From contig OZ076410.1 in the NCBI GenBank assembly GCA_964187785.1, forward strand, positions 69,378,001-69,442,000: a DNA stretch of 64,000 nucleotides, in the 5' to 3' direction. Below, piece after piece: positions 9,812-54,699 of this stretch; within the stretch, counting starts at the first letter, position 1; the number at the start of each line of letters is the position of its first letter. The translations under genes were made by a program, and so were the position numbers. Under the pieces are notes generated by a model, which was not told the origin of the DNA, ran no database searches, and was given only the letters and a program-made list of their open reading frames with translations. This stretch comes from Amphiscolops sp. MND2022 (Eukaryota).

Positions 9812-10345
9812 TTAACGGCGTGAGTGCGGGCTTTGGCGGAGGAGCAGCGTATATGTCATCAGTCCGACACCAAGTCTGAACCAGGACTCTAGTTGTTTGA
9901 ACGGGCTGTTCTTTCTCGGATTCTGGAAGATGACTAATGGCGGCGGAGTTGATAGATAAGAGATTCGTGAGACGGAACCTCGCAATAGGACGTTGCCTAA
10001 GTCTTCGGTAGGACGACGAGCATCGGACACATTTGTAAAAGACTTAATGAAGTCACCCATGTAGAAGTTGTTTTGGACGGCTTGATCAACGTCCGGGATC
10101 TAAATCGATTGGCCGGCGGCGCATTTTTGGAGTACGAAATTTGCACAACACGGCGAACAGTTTGCACCAAAACTTAGGCGGATGTATTGGTACTGGCAAA
10201 TTATGTTGTCTTCCAACCATAGAAAACGTAAGCCTGACTGGTCTTCTTTACGGATTGCTACTTGCAAGAACATGCTCTCGATATCAGCAAGGACACCATT
10301 GGCATGTTCTCGAAAACAGAGAATCAGTTCGAGCAAGTCGGCCAA
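9812..10345 (-). pseudogene. BEL/Pao reverse transcriptase fragment
   Basis: LLELILCFRE...ADIESMFLQV...LRFLW...RLSFGANCSP; YMDD motif decayed to YMGD. Confidence 0.85.
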
Positions 10346-26200: not shown

Positions 26201-27487
26201 CGGGATAAAGGACAATCACCGCGGAATCACCAACCTAATACAACAATGACTGATAAAGTATTACTTCCCAGGTCTGACGGTTAAGATTACCAGGCACATT
26301 AGGCAATACATGAAATGCATGCAAACGAAACAAACAGACAAAAGACTACTCACCCTACTCACCATGCCAAGGATTATTAAGTCCAAACTCGCAATGGGAC
26401 CAGAAGATGCCCTACAATTGGATATCGTCATTTTCGACGACCCATCAAACAGATACACGGCTATAGTCACAGCAATGGACGTATTCTCACGGTACTTATT
26501 CGAGTACTGTGAAACAAGAAAAGATGCAAAAACGTCATGACATCATGACGCCCCATGCATACCTCCCCACAACCATCATCACCGACAATGGAACCCAGTC
26601 TATGTCTTATGTCTGAAGTGATGGCCGACACAACCCGCGTCCTGTGCATTCAACCGACAACAAGCCACGACAAAGCATGCACAGACGATGGACGTCTTCG
26701 AACGTTGCCATGCATCGCTGAAAGAAGCACTCAAAATATCAACAGGAGAGCGGCAAACAATGTGGAACTAATTTGTACCCAACGCCACGCTCAACTATAA
26801 CACAACGTACCATTCAACCCTGGGATGCGGGCCCAGCAGAGTTTTCTACGGCAGAGTACCCTATTCTGTACTCGATCTGCAATTTGGCCGCAAGACCCGA
26901 CGACCGACACCGAGGAAGAAGTCCTTCAGAAAACTCGCCTCATCCACGAGTCGGTGAGCAAGCACCTTCTGCAATTGTACATACGGTGCAAACAATATTA
27001 GGACAGGAAAGCATTGGAAGCAAACGAGTACTGCTATGGCTTACACCCACAAGCAAATGATCAAGTACCAAAGATACCTTTGGGAGAGTATTTGTGGACA
27101 GGTCCGTACATAGTCGTGAAAACTCTCCCGAATAACAATTATCGGAAACGAAAGCTACAAACCAACAGAACCCAAATTCTACACAGGATAAGCCTGGAAC
27201 CATGCCAAACTAGAGACCGCCTACCCGGCATACAAGTTCAAGCGAAGGACTTCCAACCAGACAATTTAGTCGAAGTCCTAAACACCATCGCGTGGCAATC
27301 AGTGTTTGAACACTTCCTTATATCAAACAACATCCCCCCTAACGAGGCTGCAACCATCCACCCTGACAAGCTCGCCTGCTCAGAAGACACAACCGAGGAC
27401 ATAGCCCCGGATATCCCAATAGAATATAACCCTACTGAAAAGCGTCAAAACCCAGAACCCAACCCAAACCCGGAACCTAGTTATTAG
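23290..27487 (+). pseudogene. pol: pol of element D (PR, dUTPase-like segment, RT, RNase H, integrase)
   Basis: LIDSGAL (broken by a gattcag duplication), KLDCSQAYH, YDVDIGIA (decayed YVDD), LMTDA, integrase H-H-C-C and AMDVFSRYLF, LWTGPYIVVK; order PR-RT-RH-IN is Ty3/Gypsy. Confidence 0.9.
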
Positions 27488-27525: not shown

Positions 27526-28103
27526 CCCGAAACCTAGTTATATATATTCATATATACGTACGCAACAGAAGAACTACCAAATTCTAAAGTCTATCCAATT
27601 CAATGTCTCAGAAACAAACAAAGTAATCATCATCTCCTTCCTCCTTTTCCCTTGCTTTTGGGGGCCTTTGACCCAGTTTTTTCTACAGACGGAATTCCCC
27701 GTTGCTCTTGACGTCTCTGCTGTAAATTCCGAGTCACGACACTGGACAAGTCAGGTCTGAATAACAAATCAGACTCATGGAAAGTAGTAACTCTGCCCGA
27801 AGGTGCAGTCTCCGGTGGCGAACACACAGCACTGGCAGCAACAGCAGGAAAATTGGAACCACCCTGCGAACCGACCAGAACAATGTCAGCAGAAGGAGAA
27901 ACATTCGAACCACCAAAACCCACAAGAGGCTGTATGGATAGAGTACCCATGCGGTGATGCCAGTCGTCCATCTGCTCCAAGAAATACCCGTCGAAGCGAT
28001 CGTGTAAACCACGATACAAGTCCCGATGCTCAACACAAAACAGTGACCACCAAGGGGAAAAAGTAGCGTCTCCAGTAACTGACCTACCACTGAGCAAATT
28101 CAC

Positions 28104-31100
28104 CTAGATCCTCCAAGCAGTCCCTTTGTCTGCAACTTTCCGGAACTGAAGCTGGGAAAGGAGATATAGGACTGAAACAGCCAAGATAGCAGAGGTAGCA
28201 ACCTTATGCGGTACAGCGACTCCACTCAAAGAAATTTCTTCATCGGGATAAGTATCTTCGCGAGGAATCACCAAAGCAGAAGACAGCTGAGCGGCACGCG
28301 CCAAACGTTCCCGACAAGTAAATGACTACGACTGAAGCATAAAACTAATGCAGTCTTTGATCGACGACACAACCTGCCCATTTCGACGTCGCACTTCTAG
28401 AAGGAAAGATTTGAATTCATTACATGCCCCCTCCGCTTCCAAAGCAGTCAGCCGCCCACACTCCTGATAGCACGCCAAAAGACCTTTGAACAACTCCACA
28501 GTAAAAGCCTCGTCTCCCTGCAAGATCATACCAGGGGAAAAACAACTCAGATTTGAGGCAAGGCGAGAGCCCATAAAAACAGAGCTAATCAGCGTCAAAA
28601 ACTCCATCATGAACCCATGATGATCACGAAGGAACTTCCGTCGACTGGGCTCATTGTAACCAGCCAAAGCAGTGACGAAGATGGGCTCGGTTCTCAAGCA
28701 GTCCACATAAGATACGACCGACAGAGTCAGTGGCTTGCCGATGTTTTCACTCCAGGCGTCGATCTCTTGCAATTCCGACAGTTTCTCAACTTTGTCAAGT
28801 AAACTCCAATTAAAAAAGCAGAAATCCGCATAGCTTCGACAATGGCAACAGTGATCGTCGGCACAAACTGCGACATTCGCTTGGAAGCACACGACTACCA
28901 CATGTAATACACACAAACGGGTCAATATACGAAGATCAGCCAAGACCATCTGGCTTAAGTCCTGTGGAGGCTTTTTCCGAGCTGTAGATGCCACAGTGCC
29001 TTCGCCCAGGAACAATTTGATGTCAACAATGCCGAACTATCTCGTCCAGCCCAGCTGCCAAATATATAAACGGAATGTCGCGCTGCCGGACACACTTCCG
29101 TAATGCTACCAACCCCAGCATCCAAGGTTGGTTTACAGCTCGATGCAGACAAAGAAGTAAATACTTGAACAAAGCAAAAGGATCCAATGAACCAGTATCA
29201 ACTTTTCTCACTACCTGTACATGTTCTGTCAAACTCCGGTGTGTATGCAGCGACAAACATCGGTTTAGGGCGCCCCTGGCCACCTTACTATTTCTTCGCC
29301 ACGTTAAATAGAGTTGCAGTACAACCCCGTACTGAGACTTGCGACTGACCAGTTTGTAGAATTGCAAAAATCCGTGACAGGCCAGTAATCTCGGGCTCCC
29401 ATAGCACACAGATTTTACGAAGAGCATCATACGACACACAGTGATTGAAGAAACGCTGTCCTTTTTGATCCCTCCGCAGACTAGCACAGAAAAAGGAGCC
29501 TTTAATCCACCTATGTACCCGACGAAGAATCCGTGGATACACGTGTGCCGACGATCACAAGGGGTTCTGTTTTGCTCCAAGTAGCATGCGCGCAGTTGGA
29601 ACTGATCAGGATGGTAGCTCGGAATTGGTTCCACAACCGCCGGAAGTACCCGTGGGACCCCCACTCCTCAGCAGATCAAATAGGCCGCCAATAAGAGTAG
29701 AGGATGGAACACTCGACTCGGCGCCGGCCAACGCATCAACTTCATCCTCAACGAAGTGATTCTTCTTCCCCTGGACAACAGCTGGAGTCTTTTTAATTTC
29801 GGCTCGCAGCTCAGCCGAGATCGATGACACTGGCACCTTGTCATAGTGGGTGGTGTACAAGTAACCCTCGTAACAACGAATTCTGAGGAAGTGTCGTATA
29901 CTCCCGAAATGGCGCTGAATCTCAGGCTCGCCCCGTCTATAAAGGATACCTTTTTTTGACAAATCGCACAATTGAATCCATTGTGGTCTTCGTCATTCTG
30001 AGGACTCACAAATAGACAAGGAATCGCGTGGTCAACCATTTCTTTCCTCAGGACATAACGCTCCGACTGTCGACGTCTTGTCGCCTCATATGCCGCAAAG
30101 AGTTTTGTTTTGGCAATCTCAATGACGTCATCTTGGGACCGCGACCGATGCATATGGATCCATTTCTTCTTGAGAAGTGCCAACATCTCCTCAATGTTCA
30201 AAACAAATAATTTGGAAAGACAAATAACACAAGCGACATCACGAAACACACCGGTCAAAGTAAAACCAATCAACGACACGAATAGAACAATCTAGAACAC
30301 AAATCTGTGCGAAGCAGTGAAAGAAACAGAAAACCAAATTTCACAAACAATACTATATACTTACGTCGTGACTGTGAACGCTGCTCCTCACGTTGGGCAT
30401 GACTCCGTTCGAGACGAACAGCAACTTGACCATAGGGGAGAACCTGCGAGGAAGACAAGCGCACAGCACATCTCGGGACATTGGTCAACCCAGCTGAAAT
30501 CAAAGACCACTGGATATCGACAATTCAAAACATGGATAAAACAGCAACCAATTCCAGAAGTACCCATCACAAAGCAAAGAAATTTCTCTTATAGCTGAGA
30601 AGAGAGAAAAAAACAACACCAACCTTATTCCCATTCATTATGGAGCACAGAACGCTCCAAGACTTCCGCAGGTCGTGCATGCTGCGTGCGCTCACGCCGG
30701 GTACATAGCACTGGAAATGGATTCACCGCAGCACTTGTCAAATCACCCTCAGTCAGAGTTCCAATGACATCGCCGTCAGAGCTCTCGTCCAAATCAGCGA
30801 ATAAGTTCCTTCATAGAAGAGCAGGGGACACATCTAGAACTTGAAAAGCACATTCACGATTGTGACTCTCAATCTCTGTATGATCCCAATAAAACGGATA
30901 CCTAACAAGCTTACTGGAAGGCCCAGGATCGGCATCAGGGCATCCCTCGACACTGGTTTCACACTGTGCCACAGAGCGAGAACGTTTAGCTGCAAGTTCC
31001 TCACGAGCAAAACTCAGACGCTTACTCCGACGAACATCCTCAGTGGCATTGGGAGCCCGTGATCGGAAATCCATGTCATCAGAATCATCGTTGAGCCCTA

Positions 31101-36588: not shown

Positions 36589-38386
36589 TGTCACCGGCTT
36601 ACCCGTGCGAGATGTCCGGAGTGCAACATCGATGAAGCAGTCAACGCTGCTTGCACATCATGATGGCTGTCTACACGAATATGGACAAGAACTTGATAAA
36701 CATTTCAAACTTTAAACTTAAACAATGCTTGTTATTGTTCATTTGATAAAATGTTGCTTTTAGTTGTACATTTCATCTAAAATGATGATTGTTGAACGTC
36801 GTTATTGTTGTTATTGTTTCACCCATAGGGTGCGTTGATCAATTGAAAAACAACTGGAGAGTTAACGCCAAAGTTATCAAAACAGTGCTAAATCTTTGTT
36901 TTGTCGTCTTAAATGATAGGAAGGAATCAAATTCAATGGTCCTATATATCTTTGCTACATTAAATCATTTGTAGTTCATTCTTGAGGAAAACAATCAAAA
37001 ACAGCATGATGATCCACTTAAAAACTAGCATAATGATTTCGTACGTTTATTTGATACTGATTATGCGGCATTATGCAGTTTTCATAAAACAGCATATGCG
37101 GTTTTGTTAAAGAAACAGCATAATGATCATGTACGCAGTGTAGTTTATACCTTGTATTGCATTATGCGGAAATTCAGTAGAAACAGCATGATGACTTGAG
37201 CTAAAAACAGCTTATGCGGAAATCTAGCAGAAACAGCATAATGGTTCAGATTGGAAACAGCATATGCGGAAACCCCGTGCAAACAGTATGACGTTTCATT
37301 ATAGGAATAGCATATGCGGAAATTTGACAGAAACAGTATGACGTTTTAACTTAAAAACAGTATAAAGACTCTTATTTCAGTTGTTAAAGTTATACTGAAT
37401 TATGAGGTTTTCATGAGACAGCATATACTGCATTCTGATGTAAAACAGCATAATTTGCAGGATTTTCAGTGTTACGATGTTGTAAGTCACAGTGCTATAT
37501 TTAGACCTTCCAGGAGTCTGACGCAAAATTATATTTTTAACATTTCACCCTAGAAACATGACGTTATGATGATTTGCATAAAATTGAAAGTCGTGTAACT
37601 AAAAATACCACCCAATAGAATCAGTTGGAGGAGGACCATCAAAAAATCATTCATCTAACCATCGTTCGAGAAATATCGCATATTCAGAGCAGTCACTCAT
37701 TTTCACAAACAACTCACAACCCACAAACTTCGCAGTTTCCTTCCTCTGTAAAAATAACTTCCACAGTTTCATTTTGCCAAAATATCTTTGTAATTCAAAG
37801 ATTTTCGCACCTAACATTGTTTTCATCATGGGAAACAAGAGAAATAGACGATCAAGGAGAGTAGAGTCCCAATCATTAGACAGAGACGAAAATACTTCAG
37901 GAACAAGCTTCACTCAAGGTAATGCGACTTTAGTTGGTGTTTCTGGAATTGTTAATAATGTTCTTGACAGGAACTTAGGCAGCGAACTAACAGAACCTTC
38001 TCAGATAAGCAATGAGATAGAAGTTATTTCGCAAAGACTAACAGAACAGAACAACGACAAAATGTCACAGATTGAGGAGCAACTAAATAACAAATTCGAA
38101 GAGATACTTAAGGAGATTAAAACAAACAAAAATCACATTGTAATAACTGATGAAGAGGTTGCCGAGAATAATCAGCCCGGTCCTTCTAACTATAGAAATA
38201 AGGGTCTAAGGAACAAACACGCATCAAGTACAACATCAGATAAAAATAAGAATCAGGATGACCGGTTATATCCGTCTGAAATGAGTGAATTAAGACAACC
38301 GTACACTCCTCTTGGGATTGCTGAAGACACTTTAGACGAAACCGTCATCATAAATGAAAACAGACAGGAAAGGGCCCAACATCACA
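36589..38386 (+). repeat. 5' LTR of element F (1798 bp)
   Basis: TGTCACCGGC...AACATCACA; 6 mismatches against the 3' LTR in the first ~140 nt. Confidence 0.95.
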
Positions 38387-39431
38387 TGGTGACAGGACCT
38401 ACCAAGAACATCCTGAGACAAAGTTCGACAAACTCCAACACCACAAATACACAAGGACCACACGCACAAACTCCTCTCGAGCATCCTGAACCAACAAATC
38501 CCGTCAGTCAAATTGCCATAGCAATCGAAAATCTCGCACGAAGAAATACGAACCATCCCTTTTTCACCCAAAGAACACACTTACTTTCAACGGGAAATTA
38601 GAGAAAAATGAAAAATTTGAGTATTCTGAAGATCTTTTCCACACAACACTCAAAATGCAACCACACCTCACGGAGGACATAAAAATCAACCATTTTCATG
38701 CCCATTTAAGAGGACTAGCATTGAAAACTTTTAAAAACATTCAAAGAACTTCGACAACAACACTTGAAGATATATTAGTAGTCTTCGGAAGGAAATATGT
38801 TAAGCCTGAATCCAGCGCCTCTGCAAAACACAGATTTAACCGGCTCATGTTCCAACCAGAAAATCAAAAGCTACCCGATTTTCTTGAAGACCTCCAAGAA
38901 AGAGCTGAGAAAGCATTCGGCGAAGGAGCACCACAGATGATTGAGAGCCTGATATATGCAAAAATGCCCCCTCATCTCAAAAAATCAATCAACCAGGCTT
39001 ACCTCGAAAACGGTACCTATGAACAAATAGTGAAACATCTAGAACGAGAGATGGAGCTCAATGGACTCGAAGCAGATGAACCTCTAGTGAAAACTCAAAT
39101 GACTGCAGTCAAACAACAAACCAACACACAAAACACTAAAACACCCCCACAAAACACAAAAACAAAAACAAAAACTCCAAACACAGTACCCAACAACACA
39201 CTTCAAGATAACCAATGCCGATATTGCAAGGATGAAGGCCACATAGTAAAAGAGTGCCCAAAACTTGCAGAACGACAGAAAATGGATCAAGACCCAGATG
39301 CACCAAGATGTTCCCATTGTAACACCCCTGGTCATGAAGAACCAAACTGTTACTTCGGAGCAAACATGGAAAATCGTCCACCTAAATGGACACTCACCGA
39401 AACCCAGAAAAAAACTAATCGAAGAATATAA
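37828..39431 (+). pseudogene. gag: gag of element F, starting inside the LTR; one frameshift near 38600
   Basis: ATG 37828 (MGNKRNRRSRR) reads through the LTR end and PBS; KLPDFLEDLQ...HLEREMELNGL; two CCHC knuckles (CRYCKDEGHIVKEC, CSHCNTPGHEEPNC). Confidence 0.9.
38387..38404 (+). promoter_or_regulatory. Primer-binding site of element F (TGGTGACAGGACCTACCA)
   Basis: TGG immediately after the LTR CA; 17/18 identical to the element E PBS. Confidence 0.85.
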
Positions 39432-39714
39432 AAAATCAAACAAACCAATCAACCCTCGAAATCTGAAACCTTCAACATCGAAGGATTTGAACTAATAAAG
39501 CCTTGAAACAACAACACCCCAAAAACAATGCTCAGCTGATGACTGGCAGCATCCGCCGAGCCCCAAACCTATAAAAATCACAACCTACAATCACAAATCG
39601 ACAAACAAAAGTGACTCTCCGACTGCAAACACTGAAACTACACCACCCGACCACCTTCAAGAGGATCTCTATGACTTACTCAAAGATGCCCCGGATAATT
39701 ATCTACTACGATCC

Positions 39715-42700
39715 ATGTTTGTGCCTGAAACTGGAACCGAAACACAAAATCAGCAACCCACAATCTCGCGACCTCAAGAAACACAAACTGGCCAATTAAA
39801 AGTACAATCCACATCGACAACCCAAACTGACGATGACACTACATCGGACTTAACCAACACTCTCTTCAGCGCGTCTCCTGGAAAACAACCTCTCCTTGAT
39901 GCCGACGTTTTTAATCACCTCACAACAGACGAAGGTAACAACTTCGCAAACTTAAACCTTTCCACAAACCTTACCCTCAAAAAGAAGCGTCATATGTACT
40001 ATTTCCCAATGGATTTCAAGAAATTAACTCTGGATGGACTCATTGATACTGGCGCCCTTACAAGCGCCATTTCCGAACAAGATCTCAACAAAATAAAACT
40101 CCTTTCAAACGAAGCCATAAAAGATACTGGTCCAGCACCCAATTTTCGAATCATGGTGGCAAATGGTCAACTTGAGCGACCCATCGGCACCGTCTTACTT
40201 CAATTTGAAGTAGCAGACTTCCAATTTCAAGAGAACTTCATTGTTATGAAGGTACTACCCAACCCATTAATCGGCCTGTGTTTTTTACAAAGACACCATG
40301 CCATGTTTGACATTCGTCAAGGGATTATTACTTTCCCTTACCTGTCGATGCAACTACGACCAGACCACACAACAAATACCCGAACAACAACATCCCTTCT
40401 AACAGAAACTTCATATACCCTACAACCTGGAGAAACCCTCGCAATCTCCAGCAAAATGCCACACCTGATAGATCACAATGCCACAGGTATTGTCACTCCA
40501 TCGTCACATATGGAAGATCACGAAAGTATTTTCATTACATCTTCCCTGTGTACGGTTAATAACGATGCAGTGGGCTACCAAGTGATCAATTTTTCGGATA
40601 CGCCTTACACCCTTCCTATAGATACACACATGGCAGACTTCCGAGTTCTTACGCCCGAACAGATTAAACACATCAAACCTGTTGATCCATCAACCCTCAC
40701 ATTCATGATGCATCAACACATGGAAAACACAGATCTTTACCTCAACCAATTGATGAAACAAATCAATCATCAGATGAACCAGAAACGTACTGGTTCCCAA
40801 CACCTCAGGAACCTGGGGGATCCAGATATATACACTCCAATACAACAACGCATATATGATGAACTACTAGAACTCAAACAGCTAGAACAATTAAACCCAA
40901 ACGACAACGACGAATGAGGAATGAAATTTTTCAGTCACTTCGACTGGACGGACACTACCCTAAGCCCGTTCGAAAAACAACACACAGAAGAAATTCTGGT
41001 ACAATATCACGACATCTTCGCAAGACGTCGTTTCGATATAGGTACCAATAGAGAATTCAAGGCCAAACTGACTCCGAATGATGACAGACCAGTCTACAGT
41101 CAAAGTCTTCCTACACCCATCACCCTCAAGGACGACATATCTGTTGAACTGGCCCTTCTTCATCGTTATGGAATCATCACGACCCTACCGTTTTCTAAAT
41201 AAGCAAGCCCTATTTTTGCCCAGAGGAAACCAAACGGACGCCTTCGACTTTTGGTCGATATCCGCAAAATCAACAACCTCATCACTCAGGACTACGTGAA
41301 CAACAATCACCCAGTTAGCACTCTGTCAGATGCAGCACAGCATATGGCCGGCAAGAAACCTTGTTGCAAACTTGATTGCTCTCAAGCATATCACTGCTTG
41401 CAAATGGCAGACTACCAGTCCATACAGATGCTAGACTTTAATTTCGCGAGCCGAACATTCGCATATCGCCGCCTTGCACAAGGACTCAGCCGATCTCTGT
41501 CTGCTTTCTCATCGTTCATGAGAGAATATTTGGATAAGGCAATCAAAGCTGATCAGTGCGCTCAATATGTCGATGACATCGGCATCGCTGCGAATGATTC
41601 TACCCAGCTTTGCATCAACATCAAAACATTCTTTGAATGCATACGCGAAGCAGGACTCAAACTTACGATGGCGAAATGTCATTTTGGAGTCAAACAAGTT
41701 GACTTCTTGGGTCGGACAATTACCCCAGAAGGAGTCTCTCCACAAACTGAAAAAAAAATCAAACAATTCCTCCAAAAACTCAAATTTCCGAAATCCAAAA
41801 AAGCACTTCAGAGATATATTGGGTTTCTCAACTACTACAGAAACTACATCCCTCGCTTATCAGAAAAACTAACACCCTTTTTCAAATTGCTTAAACAAAC
41901 ATCACAATTCTCCATCCCGGATACAATTCTCGAAGCGTTCAAAAGCCTCAACCAGCAACTGGAACAATCATGCAAACTTGCTCTCAAACAACCGATCAGA
42001 AACAAACAACTCATTCTAATGACCGACGCTAGCTTTACAGCGGCAGGATACGCCATCATGATTGAGGATGATCCTGACCAAAAGCTCCAATCTAGAAGGA
42101 AAACCTATGCTCCAATAGCCTTTGGTTCAAAAACTTTTAACCCAACCCAATTGAAAATGTCCATATACGCAAAAGAGTTCCTAGCACTCTACTTTGCGTT
42201 TTCTGAAATTGGACACTTAATCTGGGGCAGCGTTTTTCCTGTTATCGTCTTCACATATAACAGATATGTAACACGCTTTTTCCAAACCAAAATCATCCCT
42301 CCGGCTCTTTGGAATGCATGCGATTATGTCCTCCAATACAATTTTGTCATTGCACATGTTGCCGGGCCATGAATACGGCTGCAGACTTCCTATCCCGAGC
42401 TGAATCGAACACCACAGAAAAACTTGAAATGAACATCCGCAATGATGTCAATACAAAAGCAATTGAAGTTCACATACAGTCCACTGGGGTCGCCGAAGAG
42501 GAACTCCTATACATACTTCCTGGAGAATCCCCCACAGAACAACAATTGTGGGAAGAAAAAGAAGCAATTCGCCAATCAGCAAAAACTGAAACACACAGCG
42601 AACCGGAAAATGAAGTGTTCGAACTACAACCTTTCCACAAAACCACAGCGGGAACCATCAACTATAGGGAGGGTCACTTCAAAGACAAAGCAAAAATCCG

Positions 42701-44474
42701 CTTAGAACAAAACAATGATGAAGACCTTCGCCATTTGAGAGCCAAAATTGAAGGCGAACCCTACAACGAAACACAATTCACACAAGACTACCGATACAAT
42801 CATTACTTACAAAACATAATGAGGATTGAGATAAAGCAAGATGTCCTAACAAGAAGATACTACAACGACACTGGGATGATAACCCATTATCAAATTCTTT
42901 TACCCAAACAACTCCTGGATGAATTCTTTCATGCTCTTCATGGTCATAACGCAAACCACCCGGGAATAACCAAAATGATCCAAGAAGCACGACAAAAATA
43001 CCACTACCCGTGTATCGCCAAATATATCCGAAATTGGGTAACAAAATGTCAAATGTGCATCCAAAACAAACGGATCAACAATGACCTACTCAAAACGGAA
43101 CTACTAAACTGCCCTGAATGGGATTTAGGCCCAGAAGACATCCTACAAATCCTTCCCAATCTCCCACCAAGCGGAGGATATGACAATATCATCACTGCAA
43201 TAGACGTGTTCTCACGCTATTTGTTTGCCTATCCAGTCACGAGAATCACTGCTCCAGCAGTGGCAAAAATCATTATGGACATTTTGTGTAAACACACATA
43301 TCAACCCACAACAATCATTACCGACATGGGCACCCAATTTAATTCTCAGGTTACAAAAGAAGTAGCCGCAGTCCTGAACATAGAACTGAAACATGCAACG
43401 ACAAAACATGCCCAAACAATTGGACTCTTAGAACGTACTCATGCATCAGTCAAAGCGCACCTTAAGGCAGCCACTGGAGAATTCAGAAACAGTTGGCACA
43501 AGTTTTTACCATTAGCGGTCTTAAACCATAATACAACCAACCATGCAACACTAGGATGTGAACCTACACGGGTCTTCCGTGGAAGAATTCCACACAATAT
43601 ATTAGCTTTCAAACTTGGATACAACCCAAATCCTCGCTTCCAACCCCAAACTGAGGTAGCAGAGGAAGTACAAAGAAGGATTGCTTTACTTCATGATCAA
43701 ACGAAGAAAAATATCATGCAATCTTACCTCAAATATAAAGCATATTACGACAGGAAAGCAAAGGCATTACCTCTAACGACAGAGGATTATTGCTTTATCC
43801 TGAATCCAAAGGCCGACACACAAGCAACGAAGATACCCTTTCGTGATTTTCGTTGGGTTGGTCCCTATAAAGTTGAAAAAGTCCTACCGAACAATAAATA
43901 TATTGTTCGCAGATTGGGCACAAATAAAACCCAACTACTCCACCGCAGTAGACTACGAAAATACAACCCACAAGCTCCACTCGCAGATAATTTTGTCAGA
44001 GAAACTGACTGGCAGAAAGAGAATACACTTGTCTCTCAAGATGATATATATGCCCATGCTTGGGACAGCAATTTTGGCAGCAGTCCATTCGATCCTGACC
44101 ACGAAGAATGTGATCAACAAGAAGACACAGTGGAATATGAACCTACTTCTCAACCAAAAATATACCACCCTCCCGCCCTCGATAATTCAAAAAATAGTGG
44201 GGAGATCCCAGCAGGACAACCTGCTGCGAACGACAAAGAACCTCCAATAACCGAAAAAACTTCTTCAGAAAATGAAAATCATGAGCCCATTCCAGAAACT
44301 TCCAGAAATTCAGAAGATATTCAAGAAATCCCTACCCAAAATTCCCCAAAAACTCCCGAAATCAACCCAGAAAATGAAGCACAAGAAGTTGAGGAAACTG
44401 TTAACACAAGAGGCGTAAAATATAACCTACGCCCAAACCCCAACCCAAACTACTCAGACTCATACAGATATTAA
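39715..44474 (+). pseudogene. pol: pol of element F (PR, dUTPase-like segment, RT, RNase H, integrase with GPY/F motif)
   Basis: LIDTGAL; KLDCSQAYH...YVDDIGIAA; LMTDAS...KEFLA; H-H-C-C, TDMGTQF, GLLERTH, WVGPYKV. Stops at 40915 and ~41200; frameshift near 42370. Confidence 0.95.
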
Positions 44475-44706
44475 AAACAGACTAGAGACTCAAAGACTTC
44501 AACTATATACGACTGCTCTTTCAGCCTCTTAATTCTCAAATTTCTTTCCTTTCTTCAAACAAAACTAAAGCCGAAAGATGAGCAAACTATTCCAGGTATA
44601 AACATCCTGGGAGGAGAACAAATGATAAATACACAAACAACAAAATTGCACTAGATAACAAAGCAAAACTACAACAACAGTTGAAATGGAATGTTAAAAC
44701 AATTTG

Positions 44707-44722
44707 AGAGAGAGAGAGAGAT
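44707..44722. repeat. (GA)n microsatellite between the pol stop and the antisense gene end
   Basis: Read directly from sequence. Confidence 0.9.
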
Positions 44723-44980
44723 CTATTTGTCCCCAGAACTTGTTTTCTTGACCGCAAATTTTTTCGGTGAACTCGGCCTTACATCAGGCAGAAATTACAC
44801 ATCAGTAACAAATCGAGACATAGAGACAACAGGTCTGGCAAGATTAGGGGATTTATTGGTGTTCCTGGCTGCTGACGTTGATGGCCCTGGTCCTGTTTGG
44901 ATAGGAGTAGGAGTTGCAAATTTAGGAGGGGTCCGGACAACGTTTGAGCCAGATGATTTAGGACTAGTCTGCAGAGATAC

Positions 44981-47900
44981 TCATAATTTCTCCTCGTCTG
45001 TAACCGTACAAGTATAACGGGAATCCAACTGGTTAACAAGCCTTCGCCTACGTGACGAGCATGAGGAGGTGACATCCCAGACTGACAAATGTTCATCTTC
45101 AAATAAAACATGTTCTCTCCCAAGCAAGGAAAAGACCGAAGACACAGCCCTGGGGTTTGTAAATAATTCAGAAGCATTTGGAATCCCCACAAGAGATGAC
45201 TGAACACAGCGCACTGAGGAGTTAGAATCGTTGACATCTGAAGCAAGTTCTGGGACACTCAGAATGAAATTCGGTGGAGAAACAATAACACCAGATGAAC
45301 TAAGGCAACATAATTTGAATATAGTAAACAAATTCTCTCGGCAATGAAGTTCATACTAGTTGGCAAGAAAGATTGCAGATGAAATCCACTTCTGCCGAAT
45401 GAAGTAGTCACAGAGAATTTCTGACTCATGAGTGTAGTCGACTTCTTCGCCATATCGTAGTACTGCTTCGTCAAAGACAGAAAATCCTCTCACAAGCTTG
45501 GATTTGCATAGCTCATGTTTTAATAAAAGATCACAGAAGCTCTTGTGGAAGCATAGGACTTGTTCTGCGAAGTGTGTAGGAGTCGGTAAATTGCTCTCTG
45601 TTACCAAACTAGCGAAATCTTTATTCTGCAAAATCTCAGCCGTAGTCTTTAAAGGAAGATCAGGAGATGAAAGGTTGATAGACAGAAAACGGTCCCAATC
45701 GGAAACGTCGCCGAGGAAAGAATCAGGGAGAATGGTCTGTAGTTGGCTATAGACGAATGTAGCAAAAGAACTATAGACACGGAAATTGCTAGGTGATGAA
45801 ACTCCGGCTACACCTTTGAAAGCTGATTGATCTAAACATAAAGAATAATAAGCTTGGCACAAACACTGGAACAACCGTCAAAAGGAAGGGACTAACAATG
45901 AAGGAGGACAGTGCGAATCAGATACAATTTGGCAGAGAATGATTTGTCGTTATAGATTGTCTCGTCAAGACTCTTCGGCTGAAAAGAACATCAAGGAATA
46001 AGAGAAGAAAATAATAACCGACAAAACGCAAGACCGAGATATACATCTTTCATGTGATACTTGAACGCTTTGAGACGATCAGCCAATCGAAGGTGGGACA
46101 TAACTTTACTCCAGTTTTTGCAAAGTTGTTCAAGGATAGCAACGGACTCTTCGTGCGTGTATTTAAGGCTGGAAATGGCCTAAAACAACAATTCTTCAAA
46201 GATATTATGACAACGCATTTAAATGCAGAATGGAACCTGTAATTCCGACGCATTATGCGGTTTTCCGAAAACATAGGACGCAAACCAGTATACAGCATAG
46301 ACAATGCAGTTTATGCGGTTTTCAGAAGAAAACAGCATAAGAAGAAATCAGTATGCGGTTTTTAGGAGAAAACAGCATAAGAAGAAATCAGTATGCGGTT
46401 TTCAGGAGAAAACAGCATAAGAAGAAATCAGCATGCGGTTTTCAGGAGAAAACAGCATAAGAAGAAATCAGTATGCGGTTTTCAGGAGAATACAGCATAA
46501 GAAGAAATTAGTATGCGGTTGTCAGAAGAAAACAGCATGAGAAGAAATCAGTATGCAGTTATCAGAAGAAAACAGTATAAGAAGAAATCAGTATGCGGTT
46601 TTCAAAAGAAAACAGCATAAGAAGAAACCAGTATTCGGTTTTCAGAAGAAAACAGCATAAGAAGAAATCAGTATGCGGTTTTCAAAAGAAAACAGCATAA
46701 GAAGAAATCAGCATGCGGCTTTCACGAGAAAACAGCATGAAAAAAAAACAAACTATAACATCTATACCGTTTTCTGGAGAAAACGGCGTAGAAGGATGCA
46801 ATACAGGACTCAGAAGAAAACAGCATAAGAAGAAATCAGTACGCGGTTTTCAGGAGAAAACAGCATAAGAAGAAAATCAGCATGCAATTTTCAAATAAAA
46901 ACAGCAGAAGCAATAATTGTGTGATTTCAGAAGAGAACGGCATAAAAAAAGGTTATGCGGACTACGAAAAGAAACAATATGCCGTATATTGAAAGGAACT
47001 GCATGACAGAGTACAGATTATCCTGTTTGCTGTATGATGGAAATAGACAAAGTACAACAAAATTCTGACGCTCTTTATGCTACCTTATGCGGATTTCATA
47101 AAACAGCATAGAAACATAATATGCTATATTATGTAGTACCCCCTGTAACGGTACGTCAGACAAATCGAGTCGAAACCACTTATTACACAATTCTTGTATG
47201 GAAATTTAGAAATGAGACATTAAAAGAATAATGAGAATACTTACTTTACGTAGTTCAGGAAGATCATTGAGCCATACAGATCCGGAAGCAGTTTGCAATT
47301 CCATCAGCAGAAAATGTAAGACGCTGTGGTAGTCGTAGCGATCCAAAATATTAACTGTATGACCTGCAAGGGCCTTGTCCAAATCCTCAAAAGAGAAAGT
47401 AGGAACGATGCACACAGCTGGGGCCTGAACCAATTCTGTGACAAGGGATTTTGAAGTAGGACCATCGAAGCCCGAAAGAAAATGAAGTGGAGGTATTGCA
47501 GGGAAGACTGCGAGGAAAGAACAAACAACTTGGAGGATCCATTTGGGGGTGAAGAGAACGTTAGGGACCTCAGCCAGAAGAAGTTGGTTGAGTACGTTCC
47601 CAGACCACAAAATCAGAAACACTTGCACGTTGTCAAAAGTTGAATTGACTTTGAGAGAGAATTGGCCCGATTGCCCAATAGATGTAGTGGAATAGGACAA
47701 CAAAGTTCGGAACATGTGGACAAGGATACCCTGAAATGTAAGGGAAACATCTGAATTGAGGTACAACAAAATATTAAACATCAAAAGAATAAAACATACA
47801 AAAATGCGTATGCTTCTCCAATCGTACTGTGGAACCTTAGTCGGCCCACGAACTTCCAAACTAAGATTCGCCCAAAGTGAAGACATAATATCTGCGTTTC

Positions 47901-49191
47901 CTCCGTTTTGAAGACCAATGAGCAGAATCCGAACTTGGGAACAAATTACTGCACAAGGTTCCAGATCGTTCGTAGCAACTGGAAGTTTTCTTTGCCCAGG
48001 CAATAGATAACACTCCCCGAGGACAGGTGTGATAGGGCTGGCGAGCTCAGCTCTTTCACGTGCCTTGTCTAGCTCTTGCCCACTGAGTTCTACTTCATCG
48101 CGACCATAGAGCGGTAACCCAGGTATCTCCATTCGGACACGGTGTTCCCGGAGTAAGTGCGTATCTGTTCTGTAATGGGACAGTATCTCGAGCGACCCCT
48201 TGGTGTTAAGGGACAGCTCAATCTGGCAGACTCTACAACGCCACTTGTGTGGGTTGTTTTCAGCATCAATAGGAGCAGTAACGAAAAACTTGAAAATCGG
48301 ATGTTTTCTATACATACTTCCTGTTAATTGTAATCGCGGTCTGGGCCTTTTCGAGGCAGAATGATGTTCTCCTTGAGGATCCTGAAGTTGGCTGCCCTCT
48401 CTAATCTGAGTTGATTTTCGACCTCGACGGGCTTTGCGGGAAGTGAGTGAAGGAATTTCTTCAATGGTACTCACAGGAGAAGCAACGAGTGACGAGTCAA
48501 TATGTGTTCCGCTAGTCTAAGTTTGTAACACGGTTGCAGTTGTTCCCACAGGAGAAATGGCGAATTGCTCCACTAATCTGGAGCTAATGGCGGTTGAGAC
48601 TTCAGACACCAATACTTGCATACGTTGTTCCAGCGCTTGCAAGTCAGAACTTGTAGCAAAAGTAGGGGTAATTGACGGCTGAGAAGTGGTTCCTATGACA
48701 GGTCCTGAGGTAACATGGGCCGCACTCACTTCGGTATCAGGCAAAATATTCCGGTTCAGGAAACTAGAAAAAGACGAGTTGCATATCTTGTCGGAAGAAG
48801 ACCCAGTGACGTTGAGATCTCCTGACGTATTGTTTGCATCAGAATTCCTGGCTTGAACAGGACTTGTCCCGAGCAGATTCTCAGGCACGTTCATGTTTGG
48901 GGAAGTGGGCGCGCTAGGTTGCGCAAGAAAACTAATCGCAGTCTCAATCACGGGATTACTAAACCCCTCAGGGTCCATGCTTTTATCTATGGAGTGCCTT
49001 ATACCGTCAGCATCAACAGACGTACCTGGCACTTCCTGGTAACTAAGCTGGTGATCGGGAGTTGAATGGTGAGGTGGATCACCGAATGGGAGCAGTAAAG
49101 CCAGATTATCGGCGCAGATTGGAGTCTGAGCAAGTGAATCAGAACTATGGGCAGCTGAAACACAAGAGAAATCAAGAAATTCAGAAGACAA
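44981..49191 (-). pseudogene. Antisense multi-exon accessory gene of element F (Zn finger plus hAT-transposase-like body); best-preserved copy
   Basis: Acceptor at 49155; WRCRVCQIELSLNTKGSLEILSHYRTDTH; GT-AG introns 47799-47731, 47244-46180 and 46044-45979; spliced product aligns with D. Some stops/frameshifts in the 3' part; first exon not located. Confidence 0.8.
46311..46990. repeat. 40-bp tandem array of palindromic units within an intron
   Basis: Unit GAAAACAGCATA-AGAAGAAATCAG-TATGCGGTTTTC-AGGA; about 11 near-perfect copies to ~46740, then ~5 degenerate ones. Confidence 0.95.
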
Positions 49192-50596
49192 GAAATAGTC
49201 AAAGACGACAGTCGACTGTTTAAAATAGTGGGAGCCTGATCAACTCTCACTTTAAACAAACAGAACTAGTTCAAAAAATTATTCACGACTTGAAACAGGA
49301 AATCCGGATTTAAACCTGTGGATAGTTGATGAAAACTGAAGTTCGAATCGGAACAGGACACTCAAGAGAGCCTATAATGATTGTGTGAAATCAAATCTTT
49401 GAACCTACGCACCATTTAATTAAATTGGGCGAAAAAAAATTGGGAAATACAAACCTTGTGTCGGCAGCTCGTTAATCTGTTCTCCAGTCTCGTTGCATTC
49501 CATGATGGAAAACGTCCATAACGGAAACTGATATAAAATCCAAAGTATAAAACTGGTAAAAGGGAATATTCAAAATGAAAATCGAGTTGATGAGACAGTA
49601 ACTATGACGAAAAGAAGAAAATGGGGAACACTGGTGAGAAAAGTCTTGAAGAAACAATAAAAATGGATATCTAAATGAAGATAATGGAAGAAAGAGACAA
49701 TTAACAATGGGCTGTTTGGGAATTTCTATATGACAAATACTGTTTGACGAAAATACTATCGATCAAAACTTTGAGACAAAGAAGCAGTAGAGCGTAAGTA
49801 TTACAGCAAGAGAGAAGGCGTGGCTATCAACACAAAGGCAATAAAGCAAATGAATGACGTGTTTCACAATGTACGCAAACCAGCTTAAATCTGATTGGCC
49901 GAGAGAGTGCATGTGGCTCGGAAGTATCTGCCAGTAAGACCAAGTTAATAATGCATTCGCTGCTAACTTGACTATGCGGAAAAGAACGATGAACAGCATA
50001 GTGCAGTAATAGAGTTAATAGGTAGAATTATGATGCATTATGATGAATTCAGTGTGCGGCTTATGATGCAAATGTCTACTTGTTTTCATATCATCTGTCA
50101 TATGCTGGAAATACGAATAAAGTTGTTACGTCAGAAGAAGTGAATAATGCTATGAAGGTGTGAAAACTTTCACTTTGATAAACCTGAATGAACCTATGAT
50201 ATATTTAATTATGAGCAATTAAAATTATTCAGACGGAATAAGAAGACGATAATCGAAACATAAGAGAAATTGAAAAAAAATTTTCAGGATCTGATGATTG
50301 TTTATATGACATTAACAATTTTACCGGTGCTATTTCCCCCATATCTCACGATAAATTACCTGAAAACCAGGGAAATGGGTAATTCGAGATATGTTTTGAT
50401 GCTATTTGTAAAAAAAACCCGTAACTCAATAAAAAACTATAAAATCTTATCATTCTGATCACAAATCTCCAAAAATTAGCCGCTTATTTTCCTCTCTCTC
50501 TCTCTCTCTTCGACAAATTCCTTGAGAATTTATTAATCATATTGTGTTAAATTTTCTTGAAACTTGACTGGAATCAAATAAACCCATTGTCAAACA

Positions 50597-51542
50597 ATGG
50601 AGAGTACACCACGAAACTCGATCCTCAATAGAGCTGATTCAATGAACCCTGCATTGGACCTAATCAATATCTCAAGTAGTTCGGGGGAAGAATTCATGGT
50701 GGAGCCCTCTCAGTGAACGATCTCGATGAAAGATTTAGATCTGCCCCATACCCTTTGACAGACATGTCAACAGCCTTTATGGGAGCAGCAGGAGCAGTGT
50801 TATTCCCTAGTAGCACCGATCCACAAGCAGGAGATGGTCAACAAATTGATACTAGGAACTCCCGTATCGAAAATGAACTGATGGACCTCACGGATGACGT
50901 ATCTAATATATCCTCCCTGACCTTCATCGGATCATCAGAAGAAGAAGACAATCCGTTCCTTGGTGCCAATTTCGGTAATGTAGATCAGGCTGAAAGAAAC
51001 AGCTATGGTCGACCAGTCCAAAGGGTGCAACCTATGGTCAGAACCCCCCGAGTAACAAGAGCAACAGTGAATCCCCCGCTCGTACCAAGTAGCAGGAGTG
51101 CTTTCTCAGTGGTAATACCCGAACAAAGGAGAGCTCCAGAAAACCAAACACACCCACCGATGCAAGCTAATTACTTGCCTATGCCCGTTCCATTTTACCC
51201 CAATATTTGGAACAATATTACACATCCTCAACAAAATTTCACGGTCAAGTTCAAGTTCAACCTCAGGGGCCACCTAACGGGCTCATATTGCAGATGAACC
51301 CTCCAGTAATGCCTGAAGTGGCCGGGTTTTGTGCTGGCTGTTCCAAAACTTGTGACCAAATTGCTGTCGAGACGCTCACCCACTATGTTGCGTGGTCCGA
51401 ATATCCAGACGAAACAATTCGCGATCGCAATGTGAGGTCAAGTGCATTTGTTGATGGATTTGGAGCAGTGCTGATCTGCTTCAAAAATGTTGGACTGTCG
51501 CCGGCTTACCCGTGCGAGATGTCCGGAGTGCAACATCGATGA
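50597..51542 (+). pseudogene. ORF3 of element F: sense ORF (~315 aa, two frameshifts) ending inside the 3' LTR; unknown function
   Basis: ATG 50597 (MESTPRN...), ORF 50713-51297, ORF 51207-51542 with FCAGCSKTC and a C-terminus LSPAYPCEMSGVQHR encoded by the LTR start. Confidence 0.65.
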
Positions 51543-53286
51543 AGCAGTCAAAGCTGCTTGCCCATCATGATGGCTGTATACCCGAATATGGACAAGAACT
51601 TGATAAACATTTCAAACTTTCAACTTAAACAATGCTTGTTATTGTTCGTTTGATAAAATGTTGCTTTTAATTGTACATTTCATCTAAAACGATGATTGTT
51701 GAACGTCGTTATTGTTGTTATTGTTTCACCCATAGGGTGCGTTGATCAATTGAAAACAACTGGAAAGGTAACGCCAAAGTTATCAAAACAGTGCTAAATC
51801 TTTGATTTGTCGTCTTAAATGATAGGAAGGAATCAAATTCAATGGTCCCATATATCTTTGCTACATTAAATCATTTGTAGTTCATTCATGAGGAAAACAA
51901 TCAAAAAAAGCATGATGATCCACTTAAAAATCAGCATAATGATTTCGTAAGTTTATTTGATACTGATTATGCGGCATTATGCAGTTTTAATAAAACAGCA
52001 CATGCGGTTTTGTTAAAGAAACAGCATAATGATCATGTACGCAGTTTAGTTTATACCTTGTATTGCATTATGCGGAAATTCAGTAGAAACAGCATGATGA
52101 CTTGAGCTAAAAACAGCATATGCGGAAATCTAGCAGAAACAGCATGATGGTTCAGATTGGAAACAGCAAATGCGGAAACCCCGTGGAAACAGTATGACGT
52201 TTCATTATAGGAATAGCATATGCGGAAATTTGACAGAAACAGTATGACGTTTTAACTTAAAAACAGTATAAAGACTCTTATTTCAGTTGATAAAGTTATA
52301 CTGAATTATGAGGTTTTCATGAGACAGCATATACTGCATTCTGATGTAAAACAGCATAATTTGCAGGATTTTCAGTGTTACGATGTTGTAAGTCACAGTG
52401 CTATATTTAGACCTTCCAGGAGTCTGACGCAATATTATATTTTTAACATTTCACCCTAGAAACATGACGTTATGATGATTTGCATAAAATTGAAAGTCAT
52501 GTAACTAAAAATACCACCCAATAGAATCAGTTGGAGGAGGACCATCAAAAAATCATTCATCTAACCATCATTCGAGAAATATCGCACATTCAGAGCAGTC
52601 ACTCCTTTTCACAAACAACTCACAACCCACAAACTTCACAGTTTCCTTCCTCTGTAAAAATAACTTCCACAGTTTCATTTTGCCAAAATATCTTTGTAAT
52701 CCAAAGAGTTTCGCACCTAACATTGTTTTCATGGGAAACAAGAGAAATAGACGATCAAGGAGAGTAGAGTCCCAATCATCAGACAGAGACGAAAATACTT
52801 CAGAAACAAGCTTCACTCAAGGTAATGCGACTTTAGTTTTTGTTTCTGAAAATGTTAATAATGTTCTTGACAGGAACTTAGGCAGCGAACTAACAGAACT
52901 TTCTCAGATAAGCATAAGATAGAAGTTATTTCGCAAAGACTAACAGAACAGAACAACGACAAAATGTCACAGATTGAGGAGCAACTAAATAACAAATTCG
53001 AAGAGATACTTAAGGAGGTTAGAACAAACAAAAACCACATTGTAATAACTGATGAAGAGGATGCCGAGAATAATCAGCCCGGTCCTTCTAACCATAGAAA
53101 TAAGGGTCTCAGGAACAAACACATCAAGTACAACATCAGATAAAAATAAGAATCAGGATGACCGGTTCTATCCGTCTGAAATGAGTGAATTAAGACAACC
53201 GTACACTCCTCTTGGGATTGCTGAAGACACTTTAGACGAAACCATCATCATAAATGAAAACAGACAGGAAAGGGCCGAACATCACA
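51496..53286 (+). repeat. 3' LTR of element F (1791 bp)
   Basis: TGTCGCCGGC...AACATCACA followed by ACGTT. Confidence 0.95.
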
Positions 53287-53305: not shown

Positions 53306-54461
53306 GGCTGTCAGATGATTCTGATGATGCAGATTTTATGGCCATTTTTTCAACACAAAACGTTGGTGCGCAGCACAGCAAACGACTGAGACGAGTGATG
53401 CAAGATGAGTCAGCAAAGAGAGTTCGCACTGTTGACTTGAGTTCAGACGACAACATGTTCGGTGAGCGCTGTGAAGTTTTTTGTAGATCTGCTGAAGGTA
53501 GGCGTTTCATTCCGTTCATGTCATTCTCGGTGCTCAGTCATGTGTTGTCATTGTCTGTTTCTTTTATCTCAGACTCCTATTAAGAGGATTAGGTGCGATC
53601 GGACGCAACATGGTCGCACGGCTGGAGGACTGGAGCGGTATGTGTTGCATAATGGAGGGGATATCGGTAAAGACATTTTTCTTATCTGGAATGACATTAA
53701 CATTAACATTTCGTGTGTAAATGCTGTGGTCTTCAACTTGCATCTTAGCATGTGTCGTTGGACTTCATGACACTGTCCTATTTAGCAGGACTATCTGAGG
53801 TACCAAAAGGGACCATGTGCTTATCTTCGAGTCAAATACTGCCTTCTAGACAAGCACTGTGCGTCTTGATCGTTTTCAATCTCGGCTCGAAGAACGGCCT
53901 TTGTCTCACCGTAAGTCGTTCACCTTGTGTTGTCTTGGCTATTTTGTTTGGTTCTAGGGCTGGTTCTGTGTTTATCGTTCTGTTCTATCCTGTTTTCATC
54001 GTTGATTGTTGAAGTTTGTAGATTATTTGAGTTGGATATCCACTTAATTTCTTTCCTGGTAAGATATGGACGAGATTCTGCGGTTGCTGGAGTCAGAGGG
54101 CATTCAGATGCAATACGTTCAGACCCAAATGAGTGCCGAGGAGAGGACCAAAGGTATGCGGTATATTAAAAACGAGAGAAGGAAAAAAGACTCTTACGTA
54201 AAGAGATGGCAGAACATCCGGCCTCCAGTTCTTTGTCTACCAGCAGTCGGAAACAAACCCAAACGGGTTCGATTGTGTGTCTACCAGAAAGATGTCTCGT
54301 TTCTTAGTCGCGGGGAGCCCGCGATTTGGCACCACTTCAGTATTGAAATTCCATATTTGAAGGAACGACGTCATAGACTGGATCATGGAGACGTAGTGTT
54401 CACTTCTCGGATTCACAATCAAAATGGCGTGCTGAAATCGAAGACCAAATCCGCGCTGTGA
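53306..54461 (+). pseudogene. Downstream exons of the element E antisense gene (truncated by internal deletion)
   Basis: Acceptor tttttgcag at 53305, then LSDDSDDADF; RTQHGRTAGGLERYVLHN; donors at 53667 and 53911; decayed finger CVYQKDVSFLSRGEPAIWHHFS. Confidence 0.75.
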
Positions 54462-54699
54462 TCCGCGTTGAGTCGAATCCCCGTGAAGCCAATTCAGAGA
54501 CCGAAGTAATATTGAGTGGACCGTAATCGTTAATCAGACTTAACAACCCCGTGTTCATCGCCGAGTCCACACTTGGTGCAAGGACTTGTACTTCAGCTTC
54601 CTTTTTCGTGAGAATGATGGAAACTTCTCGGGAGAGCAGTTTTGACACGGTTGTTCGCGTGCGGGTGAAGTGCGTAACAGTAGTCATTGATCCCCAATG

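Follow-up and report, generated by a model that had tools for sequence, protein, structure and literature searches.

Antisense extra genes are common in long terminal repeat (LTR) retrotransposons. For the antisense open reading frames (ORFs) of plant Ty3/gypsy elements, the available text of two reports calls the origin and function unknown, describes similarity to other transposable elements as lacking and leaves an origin from nested transposons without support (PMC11963269, PMC7264820). VANC and TnpA offer a second point of comparison. As far as the available text of the respective sources goes, VANC is a MAIN/PMD-like protein (PMC13547354) whose targets form family-specific tandem repeats (PMC5735166), and TnpA is derived from a transposase and sets a precedent for transposase-derived regulators (10.64898/2026.08.24.746577); a term search in the available text of the last source did not find 'retrotransposon', 'LTR' or 'gypsy'. 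Here, we describe a multi-exon antisense gene, hereafter the cargo gene, of a Ty3/gypsy retrotransposon in a 64,000-nucleotide stretch (the window) of the Amphiscolops sp. MND2022 genome (assembly GCA_964187785.1, contig OZ076410.1, positions 69,378,001 to 69,442,000). The cargo very probably originated as a hAT transposase that is now dead. It would thus supply a donor for an antisense extra gene, namely a whole hAT transposase that was inactivated and that selection strongly maintains throughout a large clade.

The carrier of the cargo gene spans window positions 36589-53286 (16.7 kb). Its two LTRs, each of ~1.8 kb, are 96.8% identical, and a 5-bp target-site duplication, ACGTT, lies outside both of them. 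Both gag and pol are read on the plus strand, and the carrier is assigned to Ty3/gypsy because pol follows the order protease-reverse transcriptase (RT)-RNase H-integrase. The cargo gene is located on the minus strand between the integrase and the 3' LTR. Comparison with other copies resolves it into six exons (49503-44723, 1,072 codons), of which the short, predicted exon 0 resembles peptides ending in PTQG or STQG upstream in three other copies (L034, L049 and L057). The C2H2 finger of exon 1 lies at about 48237-48157 and reads CRVC-x4-S-x4-G-x3-I-x2-H-x5-H. Exon 5 contains a Pro-rich loop at the place of the hAT Glu helix, as well as additional helices and a basic tail. The window copy is a pseudogene with four in-frame stops ahead of the final one (48519-48517 in exon 1 and 45358-45356, 44983-44981 and 44797-44795 in exon 5), and a 28-codon deletion near 45372 shortens its exon 5 from 311 to 283 aa. 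A preliminary description of the window had placed the gene at 44981..48474; the gene is indeed found there but extends beyond this range on both sides, and 44981 belongs to a premature stop, not to a gene end. All of the motifs that the description quoted from the window copy occur in its order on the minus strand after splicing of exons 1-5. Three others (YSIFIEDHAD, SINGG and EFKSF) do not come from this copy: EFKSF belongs to the window's second gypsy element, and the other two were not located.

Relatives of the cargo gene, searched for across the genome (1.07 Gb, 1,929 contigs), form family A, which includes the window gene and comprises subfamilies A1, A2 and A3, and a sister family B with an intronless core. 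Out of candidate pools of thousands, at least 116 matches were obtained for exons 1-2 and at least 128 for a diverged exon 5. When 40 of the 116, picked across the identity range, were examined with their flanks, the integrase was found on the opposite strand and in the same place at 39 of these family-A loci; the remaining locus is truncated. A hidden Markov model (HMM) of exon 5 found a distant cargo relative behind the window's second gypsy element (28844-28038, independent E-value (iE) 1.9e-8). Family B, which lacks the core introns, has at least 150 genome matches, and the 20 B loci that were selected for long frames contain ORFs of 818-927 aa that are without exception antisense to RT and integrase. 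Between these loci and the window element, RT is ~70% and integrase ~50% identical, and pol frames exceed 1,600 aa in seven of the 20. At least 79 matches fall to a further subgroup of B, and of the six loci from it that were examined, four have pol and two gag only. Overall, the cargo of family B lies antisense to integrase at 24 of 26 loci. Families A and B are collinear by hhalign (exon 1 with B 7-180, 97.1%; exon 2 with B 205-347, 94.7%; exon 5 with B 433-729, 96.9%), and translated intron 1 appears as an insertion in the alignment against B. Among the loci examined, no cargo copy was seen outside LTR elements, although no genome-wide census was made. The many independent copies rule out an assembly artefact.

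Other forms of the cargo were also observed. Two of the six loci of the further B subgroup (L122, 1-9792, and L143) hold a pol-less derivative of ~8 kb with the layout LTR-gag-antisense cargo-LTR, and in L122 the LTRs are 99.3% identical and the cargo frame is open (837 aa). Twelve putative cargo-like lineages (P0032, P0036, P0040, P0079, P0122, P0123, P0132, P0133, P0138, P0146, P0148 and P0150) share no more than 14-30% identity with family B and ~20-35% with family A.

The exon structure is shared by diverged family-A copies. With exon borders extrapolated from tblastn, so that some misses may be offsets, GT-AG occurs at matching positions in 35 of 37 (intron 1), 34 of 36 (intron 2) and 35 of 39 (intron 3) copies with both borders. 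Intron 4 has GT-AG in all eight printed copies that contain it and is exactly absent in five. The splice sites are conserved while the cargo proteins diverge to ~40%, and splicing is supported because GT-AG sits at the same positions in diverged copies. The five copies without intron 4 belong to one A2 subfamily (L051-L054 and L069), although the gene is antisense to the genomic RNA; this exact absence may reflect reverse transcription of spliced RNA, or intron gain. Core exons are free of stops in 16 of the 41 family-A copies examined.

Purifying selection acts on the cargo, with a ratio of nonsynonymous to synonymous substitution rates (dN/dS) of ~0.06, and is strongest at the zinc finger. 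In a Nei-Gojobori script, whose values are rough where dS exceeds 1, the family-B core yields 0.05-0.07 in five of seven pairs, the other two being saturated. By region, the family-B finger yields 0.01-0.04 and the RNase H-like core 0.09-0.14. Within family A, one pair is at 0.06-0.07 (0.02 for its finger), saturation affects most pairs that span two subfamilies, and the window copy compared with L034 gives 0.16-0.25. Furthermore, the Cys/Cys/His/His residues of the finger are invariant in 13/13 family-A and 10/10 family-B rows. A core that is less constrained than the finger is the reverse of what is expected for a working enzyme.

These data bear on the explanation that the cargo is a mere passenger, that is, a recent, nested and decaying hAT insertion without a role. 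Such an origin would fit the decayed state of the window copy and the 72% inverted-repeat pair, largely (GA)n, that surrounds the cargo (44690-44721 / 50499-50530) and could represent old, decayed terminal inverted repeats (TIRs). However, elements with integrases of ~50% identity share the site and the orientation of the cargo, dN/dS stays at ~0.06 with saturated synonymous sites, the splice sites are conserved and many frames of 830-927 aa are open. A recent nested insertion is contradicted by the selection data, and the passenger explanation is hardly credible. The (GA)n and (TC)n tracts opposed at the ends of the cargo region (44706-44721 and 50492-50509) may be microsatellites or decayed ends, and a terminal-repeat check of L071 found no inverted repeats flanking the cargo. 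The preliminary description had proposed that a DNA-transposon protein was co-opted by a retrotransposon, which is borne out by selection and the fixed position rather than by a function.

The hAT origin of the cargo is indicated by structure prediction. The natural B core (734 aa) was modelled without templates (predicted local distance difference test (pLDDT) 84.8, predicted template modelling score (pTM) 0.75) and begins with a lower-confidence finger region, followed by helices and a five-strand RNase H-like sheet (strands including 207-214, 217-226, 229-239 and 267-269). Beyond the sheet come the insertion, which is helical (299-626), and a segment free of helix (627-647), and helices again close the model. 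A Foldseek search with this model lists Hermes in each of its 11 top rows (best E 9.2e-5), and the next other protein follows at 3.5e-2. A wide structural aligner superimposes residues 168-669 of the B model on Hermes 133-609 (Z 12.8, 395 residues, root-mean-square deviation 5.0, 10% identity), and the next match is ISCth4 (Z 6.4), with RAG1 and Tn5 at 5.4. The best match in a viral structure library (BFVD) is a hAT-dimerisation protein (E 1.3e-3), and language-model features (Atlas) place hAT clusters at 0.90-0.92, behind three unnamed clusters. Exon 5 of the window family, also built without templates (pLDDT 83.4), shows the same helix series as B and has Hermes at rank 1 of 48,161 structures (Z 5.7). 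The likeness to hAT that was noted at the outset is thus borne out by the sister protein, whose fold matches Hermes first in three libraries and which is collinear with the window exons. The hAT assignment is strong for the modelled B protein and is carried to the window gene by homology.

Several observations weigh against a hAT origin. The Z score of exon 5 is tied with unrelated rows, Foldseek gave no match at E 0.001 for the window-family exon-5 model and Atlas gave no usable match for window exons 1-2. The Foldseek TM-scores of the Hermes rows are just 0.29-0.37, the aligner warns that a Z below ~13 can reflect a common arrangement among helical proteins, and the Atlas hAT rows share 143-157 features where 170 is typical of the same family. 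Pfam searches with 12 window ORFs, 12 exon-5 sequences and 10 family-B sequences assigned no family to the cargo, a PDB sequence search with two cargo profiles returned nothing relevant and a profile comparison with 17 hAT pieces of the same genome reached a probability of 0.1%. Sequence searches were equally silent about the donor. The cargo has no sequence similarity to 32 hAT loci of the same genome (18 + 14 of at least 150 PF05699 matches), and its exon-5 profile found no match among longer proteins. A profile search against 1.84 billion proteins produced 286 matches at E 0.001, of which the 150 listed are all unnamed (84-438 aa), and further protein searches produced 48 and 129 matches (120 of these shown), again relatives that carry neither a name nor a Pfam domain. 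These searches therefore pointed to no donor hAT subgroup, and viral and metagenome scans yielded no confirmed cargo relative. Pfam gave no hit to the C-terminal dimerisation domain PF05699, and the structural alignments reach Hermes 609 in both models; the N-terminal zinc finger is present, lies outside the Hermes-aligned range and is not called BED by Pfam.

Such observations could mean that the cargo is not hAT but comes from a different DDE superfamily or a host gene whose protein combines an RNase H fold with a helical insertion, and that its resemblance to Hermes arose from convergence or model bias. The ~10% identity to Hermes, the missing profile match and the unnamed state of the three best Atlas clusters agree with this alternative, and few eukaryotic DDE superfamilies have solved structures. 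Nevertheless, Hermes stands more than 6 Z units ahead of ISCth4, RAG1 and Tn5 and aligns in order across 500 residues, the models are template-free, and the Atlas features and BFVD indicate hAT independently of PDB. A non-hAT origin is therefore improbable, and we hold the descent from a hAT transposase to be very likely. An env-like gene is ruled out by the antisense orientation and the hAT-like fold. The same genome also contains several distinct, apparently intact hAT transposases (L091-L095 and L098) with D, D, CxxH, RW and ERxxS motifs, which are unrelated to the cargo in sequence.

The catalytic centre of hAT transposases is lost from the cargo. In Hermes, residues D180, D248, R318, W319 and E572 are essential, according to the available text of PMC6027215. 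Their positions in the cargo were mapped by strand and motif position to within about +/-2, with tools that gave ranges only and no residue pairs. At the position of the first Asp (D180), Asp occurs in 0/14 A rows and 0/28 B rows (Asn in the window), and no column near it is acidic across both families. The second Asp (D248) is found in 8/14 A rows, including the window copy (GFDG), and in 0/28 B rows at a column of uncertain register; four of the 28 have an Asp two residues before it. CxxH, a hAT motif, is absent after strand 5 from 14 A rows and 15 printed B rows. Mapped by its spacing to the next Trp, the RW site would be P/S-F in 13/15 B rows and T-H in the window, and an alternative candidate, an invariant Trp at B338, has no preceding Arg. 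The later Trp of the RW helix remains and the RW pair itself is gone, so that of the RW...W..L helix claimed for the gene the RW part does not hold. Both structural alignments end at Hermes 609, just past helix B 648-662 / A 221-242, which is therefore taken as the last Hermes helix, and hence the E572 region would correspond to the Pro-rich, non-helical stretch before it (B 627-647, A 207-220). Glu occurs in at most 12 of 56 rows at any column of this region, and neither model has an S-x-x-x-E-R-x-F-S helix. Young multicopy subfamilies share the same losses. Thus, the first Asp, CxxH and Glu that the preliminary description could not see are lost in A and B rows, young copies included, and a search of young copies for an intact DDE, whose presence would have spoken against a lost triad, revealed none.

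Could a remodelled active site still make the cargo a nuclease or an enzyme of strand transfer? The five-strand core is kept, the second Asp persists in the A rows mentioned above and one column of the C-terminal Glu region is Asp or Glu in 31/56 rows, mostly of family B, which counts against a complete loss. However, no Asp is found at the first position in either family and no acidic column is common to A and B; in addition, the Glu helix is absent from both models and the core is the least constrained region. A remodelled enzyme is highly improbable. Judged from the aligned sequences and the models, the cargo protein is predicted to be catalytically inactive, with the first Asp, CxxH, RW and the Glu-bearing helix missing in all subfamilies.

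What does a transposase without a catalytic centre do for its carrier? We propose that an ancestral Ty3/gypsy element received a full-length hAT transposase gene in antisense orientation in the interval from pol to the 3' LTR, and that this gene, deprived of its catalytic centre, has since been inherited with the retrotransposon clade. Transcription of the cargo would start at an antisense promoter within the 3' LTR or close to it and be followed by splicing, and the cargo introns would persist through reverse transcription because the genomic RNA, to which they run antisense, retains them. The cargo protein may enter the nucleus via its basic patches, and its retained finger and helical domain would bind short motifs of its own element, which in the A1 subfamily may be the dyads that AAAC[AC]GCAT forms in the LTR and in intron 2. 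Such binding could control transcription or chromatin of the element through activation or anti-silencing, by analogy with VANC and TnpA. The constraint on the finger and the A1 motif arrays would be consistent with such binding. If the hAT origin is granted, a regulatory DNA-binding function is evenly balanced between yes and no; the dead-hAT origin and the regulator function taken jointly fall slightly short of that balance.

The motif AAAC[AC]GCAT fits a candidate subfamily-specific binding site. The window contains 39 copies of it where 1.39 are expected, and 34 of these copies lie in the LTRs (8 and 6) and intron 2 (20) of the carrier. The 40-bp unit of the intron 2 array is a head-to-head AAAC[AC]GCAT pair, a dyad of this 9-bp motif. 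Intron 2 contains 5-27 motif copies in 10/10 A1 copies (shuffled mean <=0.06), nine of which have 39-40-bp arrays of differing sequence, and A1 LTR-side loci contain 6-16 motif copies in 7/7 cases. However, other observations weaken the motif as a general target. It is absent from intron 2 in 6/6 A2 copies and the single A3 copy, and a de novo search in A2, A3 and B found no amplified shared motif; therefore, such arrays are not a general requirement. The co-occurrence of motif and finger type represents one evolutionary event because the two share ancestry, and the dyads could be RNA hairpins. A different short repeat of the type ACTGATCATG[AC]CAGTAAGCAAAA is present in four copies at window 19747-21471, near an LTR-like start at 17935, and was not found in the family-B loci checked.

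Cargo and pol have partly separate histories. In trees of 19 copies, cargo and integrase agree at depth (A1, A2 and the lone L055) and disagree within clades. L034 and L062 are 99% identical in integrase DNA and 66% in exon-5 DNA, and the corresponding values for L052 and L067 are 99% and 67%. Therefore, old cargo alleles were exchanged between pol backbones, or pol was homogenised around them. The cargo and the adjacent LTR motif might then be exchangeable specificity modules over a shared pol backbone in a VANC-like arms race, a tentative idea that we regard as rather doubtful.

The same allele pattern informs two alternatives that share the hAT origin and differ from a transcriptional regulator in function. 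First, the cargo may be an integration cofactor, either by anchoring the complex of integrase and cDNA on selected chromatin or by bridging the two LTR ends. hAT transposases bind and pair DNA ends, the entire cargo scaffold is conserved beyond the finger and the cargo adjoins the integrase in every autonomous copy examined. However, cargo alleles of 66-67% identity on 99% identical integrases argue against a tight, co-evolving contact, and pol-less elements retain the cargo, which makes an integration cofactor unlikely. Second, the cargo may serve counter-defence as a decoy for host silencing factors or as a dominant-negative poison of active host hATs. The persistence of many old alleles swapped between backbones is what an arms race predicts, and the genome has at least 150 matches to the hAT dimerisation domain. 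Nonetheless, the lack of similarity to the 32 sampled hAT loci makes mixed oligomers unlikely, no dN/dS above 1 was found in the cargo and the finger is its most constrained part. We consider counter-defence similarly unlikely and retain regulatory DNA binding as the proposed function.

Table 1. Features of the carrier element, its cargo gene and the family-B cargo relative in the window.
Feature	Window position	Strand	Description
5' LTR	36589..38386	+	1.8 kb, TG...CA; 96.8% to 3' LTR; 8x AAAC[AC]GCAT
Primer-binding site (PBS)-like TGGTGACAGG	38387..38400	+	immediately 3' of 5' LTR; candidate PBS
gag, zinc knuckle, two frames in window copy	37603..39431	+	zf-CCHC E 4e-4, Retrotrans_gag E 0.02
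pol, several frames in window copy	39499..44474	+	RVT_1 E 6.5e-20, RT_RNaseH_2 7.6e-15
pol, integrase part	within 39499..44474	+	Integrase_H2C2 5.6e-13, rve 1.4e-8
Cargo exon 5	44723..45831	-	helical insertion and C-terminal region; SKLVRGFSVF, CRENLFTIFKL
Cargo exon 4	45897..45978	-	insertion-domain helix; DKSFSAKLYL
Cargo exon 3	46045..46179	-	helix after RW position (…LCKNW…); contains ILEQLCKNWSKVMSHL
Intron 2	46180..47244	-	40-bp tandem array, ~11 units
Cargo exon 2	47245..47730	-	RNase H-like strands 1-5; FSLKVNSTFD, SGFDG
Cargo exon 1	47800..49154	-	variable low-complexity N-terminus, basic KRPRPR patch, C2H2 finger, helical domain
Cargo exon 0, 16 codons (inferred)	49455..49503	-	ATG and GT donor
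3' LTR	51496..53286	+	upstream of antisense gene; 6x AAAC[AC]GCAT
Broken intronless family-B cargo, second gypsy element	27630..30291	-	found with exon-5 HMM; integrase 26103-27199 on +

In the carrier, the gag frame opens within the 1.8-kb LTR (37603-38386 and 52733-53286), which places ~180 gag codons in each LTR. Just ahead of the 3' LTR, at 50680-51542 on the plus strand, sense ORFs of 205 and 123 aa overlap each other; the second contains several Cys residues, and no Pfam family matched either. Elsewhere in the window, a frameshifted N-terminal piece of a B-like cargo (finger region, iE 0.007) adjoins a third, reversed gypsy fragment at 54063-54530 (plus strand), and broken frames with gag knuckles and RNase H and integrase-like pieces at 7771-13554 (minus strand) presumably represent a BEL/Pao-type element.

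Compared with Hermes and other hAT transposases (PDB 8edg, 4d1q and 2bw3), the cargo has the same succession of finger, helical domain, RNase H-like core, large helical insertion and C-terminal region, with a core of ~730 aa. Unlike Hermes, the cargo is devoid of D180, R318-W319, E572 and CxxH, replaces the Glu helix with the Pro-rich loop, continues for ~70 helical residues past the Hermes C-terminus and has a finger of the form C-x2-C-x16-H-x5-H. Unlike hAT transposons, it moves by reverse transcription, and no TIR element is evident around it beyond the 72% pair. Host-domesticated hAT proteins, such as ZBED5, FAM200, GTF2IRD2 and EPM2AIP1, likewise reuse the hAT scaffold, and they appear among the Atlas look-alikes at 0.89-0.91. 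These four are low-copy host genes, whereas the cargo is present in many copies, and each one examined is carried by an element.

The plant antisense ORFs (Retand TRP28, Grande gene23 and RIRE2) resemble the cargo in being antisense between pol and the 3' LTR across whole families and in adjoining tandem arrays, and the available text proposes a nuclear or DNA-binding role for them (PMC11963269, PMC7264820). In contrast to TRP28, no cargo exon or B core matches PF04195 or any other Pfam family, and in contrast to the plant ORFs as a group, a very probable donor superfamily is identified here and the gene is predicted to be spliced. The ORF3 genes of bdelloid LTR elements and Burro are further invertebrate Ty3/gypsy cases with captured extra genes; these encode env-like, GDSL, DEDDy, BCL2 or dUTPase proteins, and the available text names no transposase among them (PMC5408684, PMC6431247). 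A literature search by title and abstract, in a collection that lacks most subscription papers, found no report of an LTR element with a hAT or inactive transposase, although Repbase-type annotations or supplementary tables of transposable elements could list one.

VANC and TnpA are, like the cargo, accessory proteins of mobile elements, and regulation by the cargo is proposed by analogy with them. However, VANC and TnpA belong to DNA transposons and TnpA retains only the DNA-binding domain, whereas the present carrier is a retroelement and its cargo an entire dead transposase. With its protein, candidate motif and natural allele swaps, the present system offers a direct test of the idea that a dead transposase becomes a regulator in one step. 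If our proposal is true, a clade of retrotransposons, which are class I elements, turned the enzyme of a DNA transposon into a sequence-specific regulator for its own use, and one transposon class was domesticated by another instead of by the host. The cargo would thus work like an antisense accessory gene; it very probably descends from hAT and is predicted not to be a functional hAT member.

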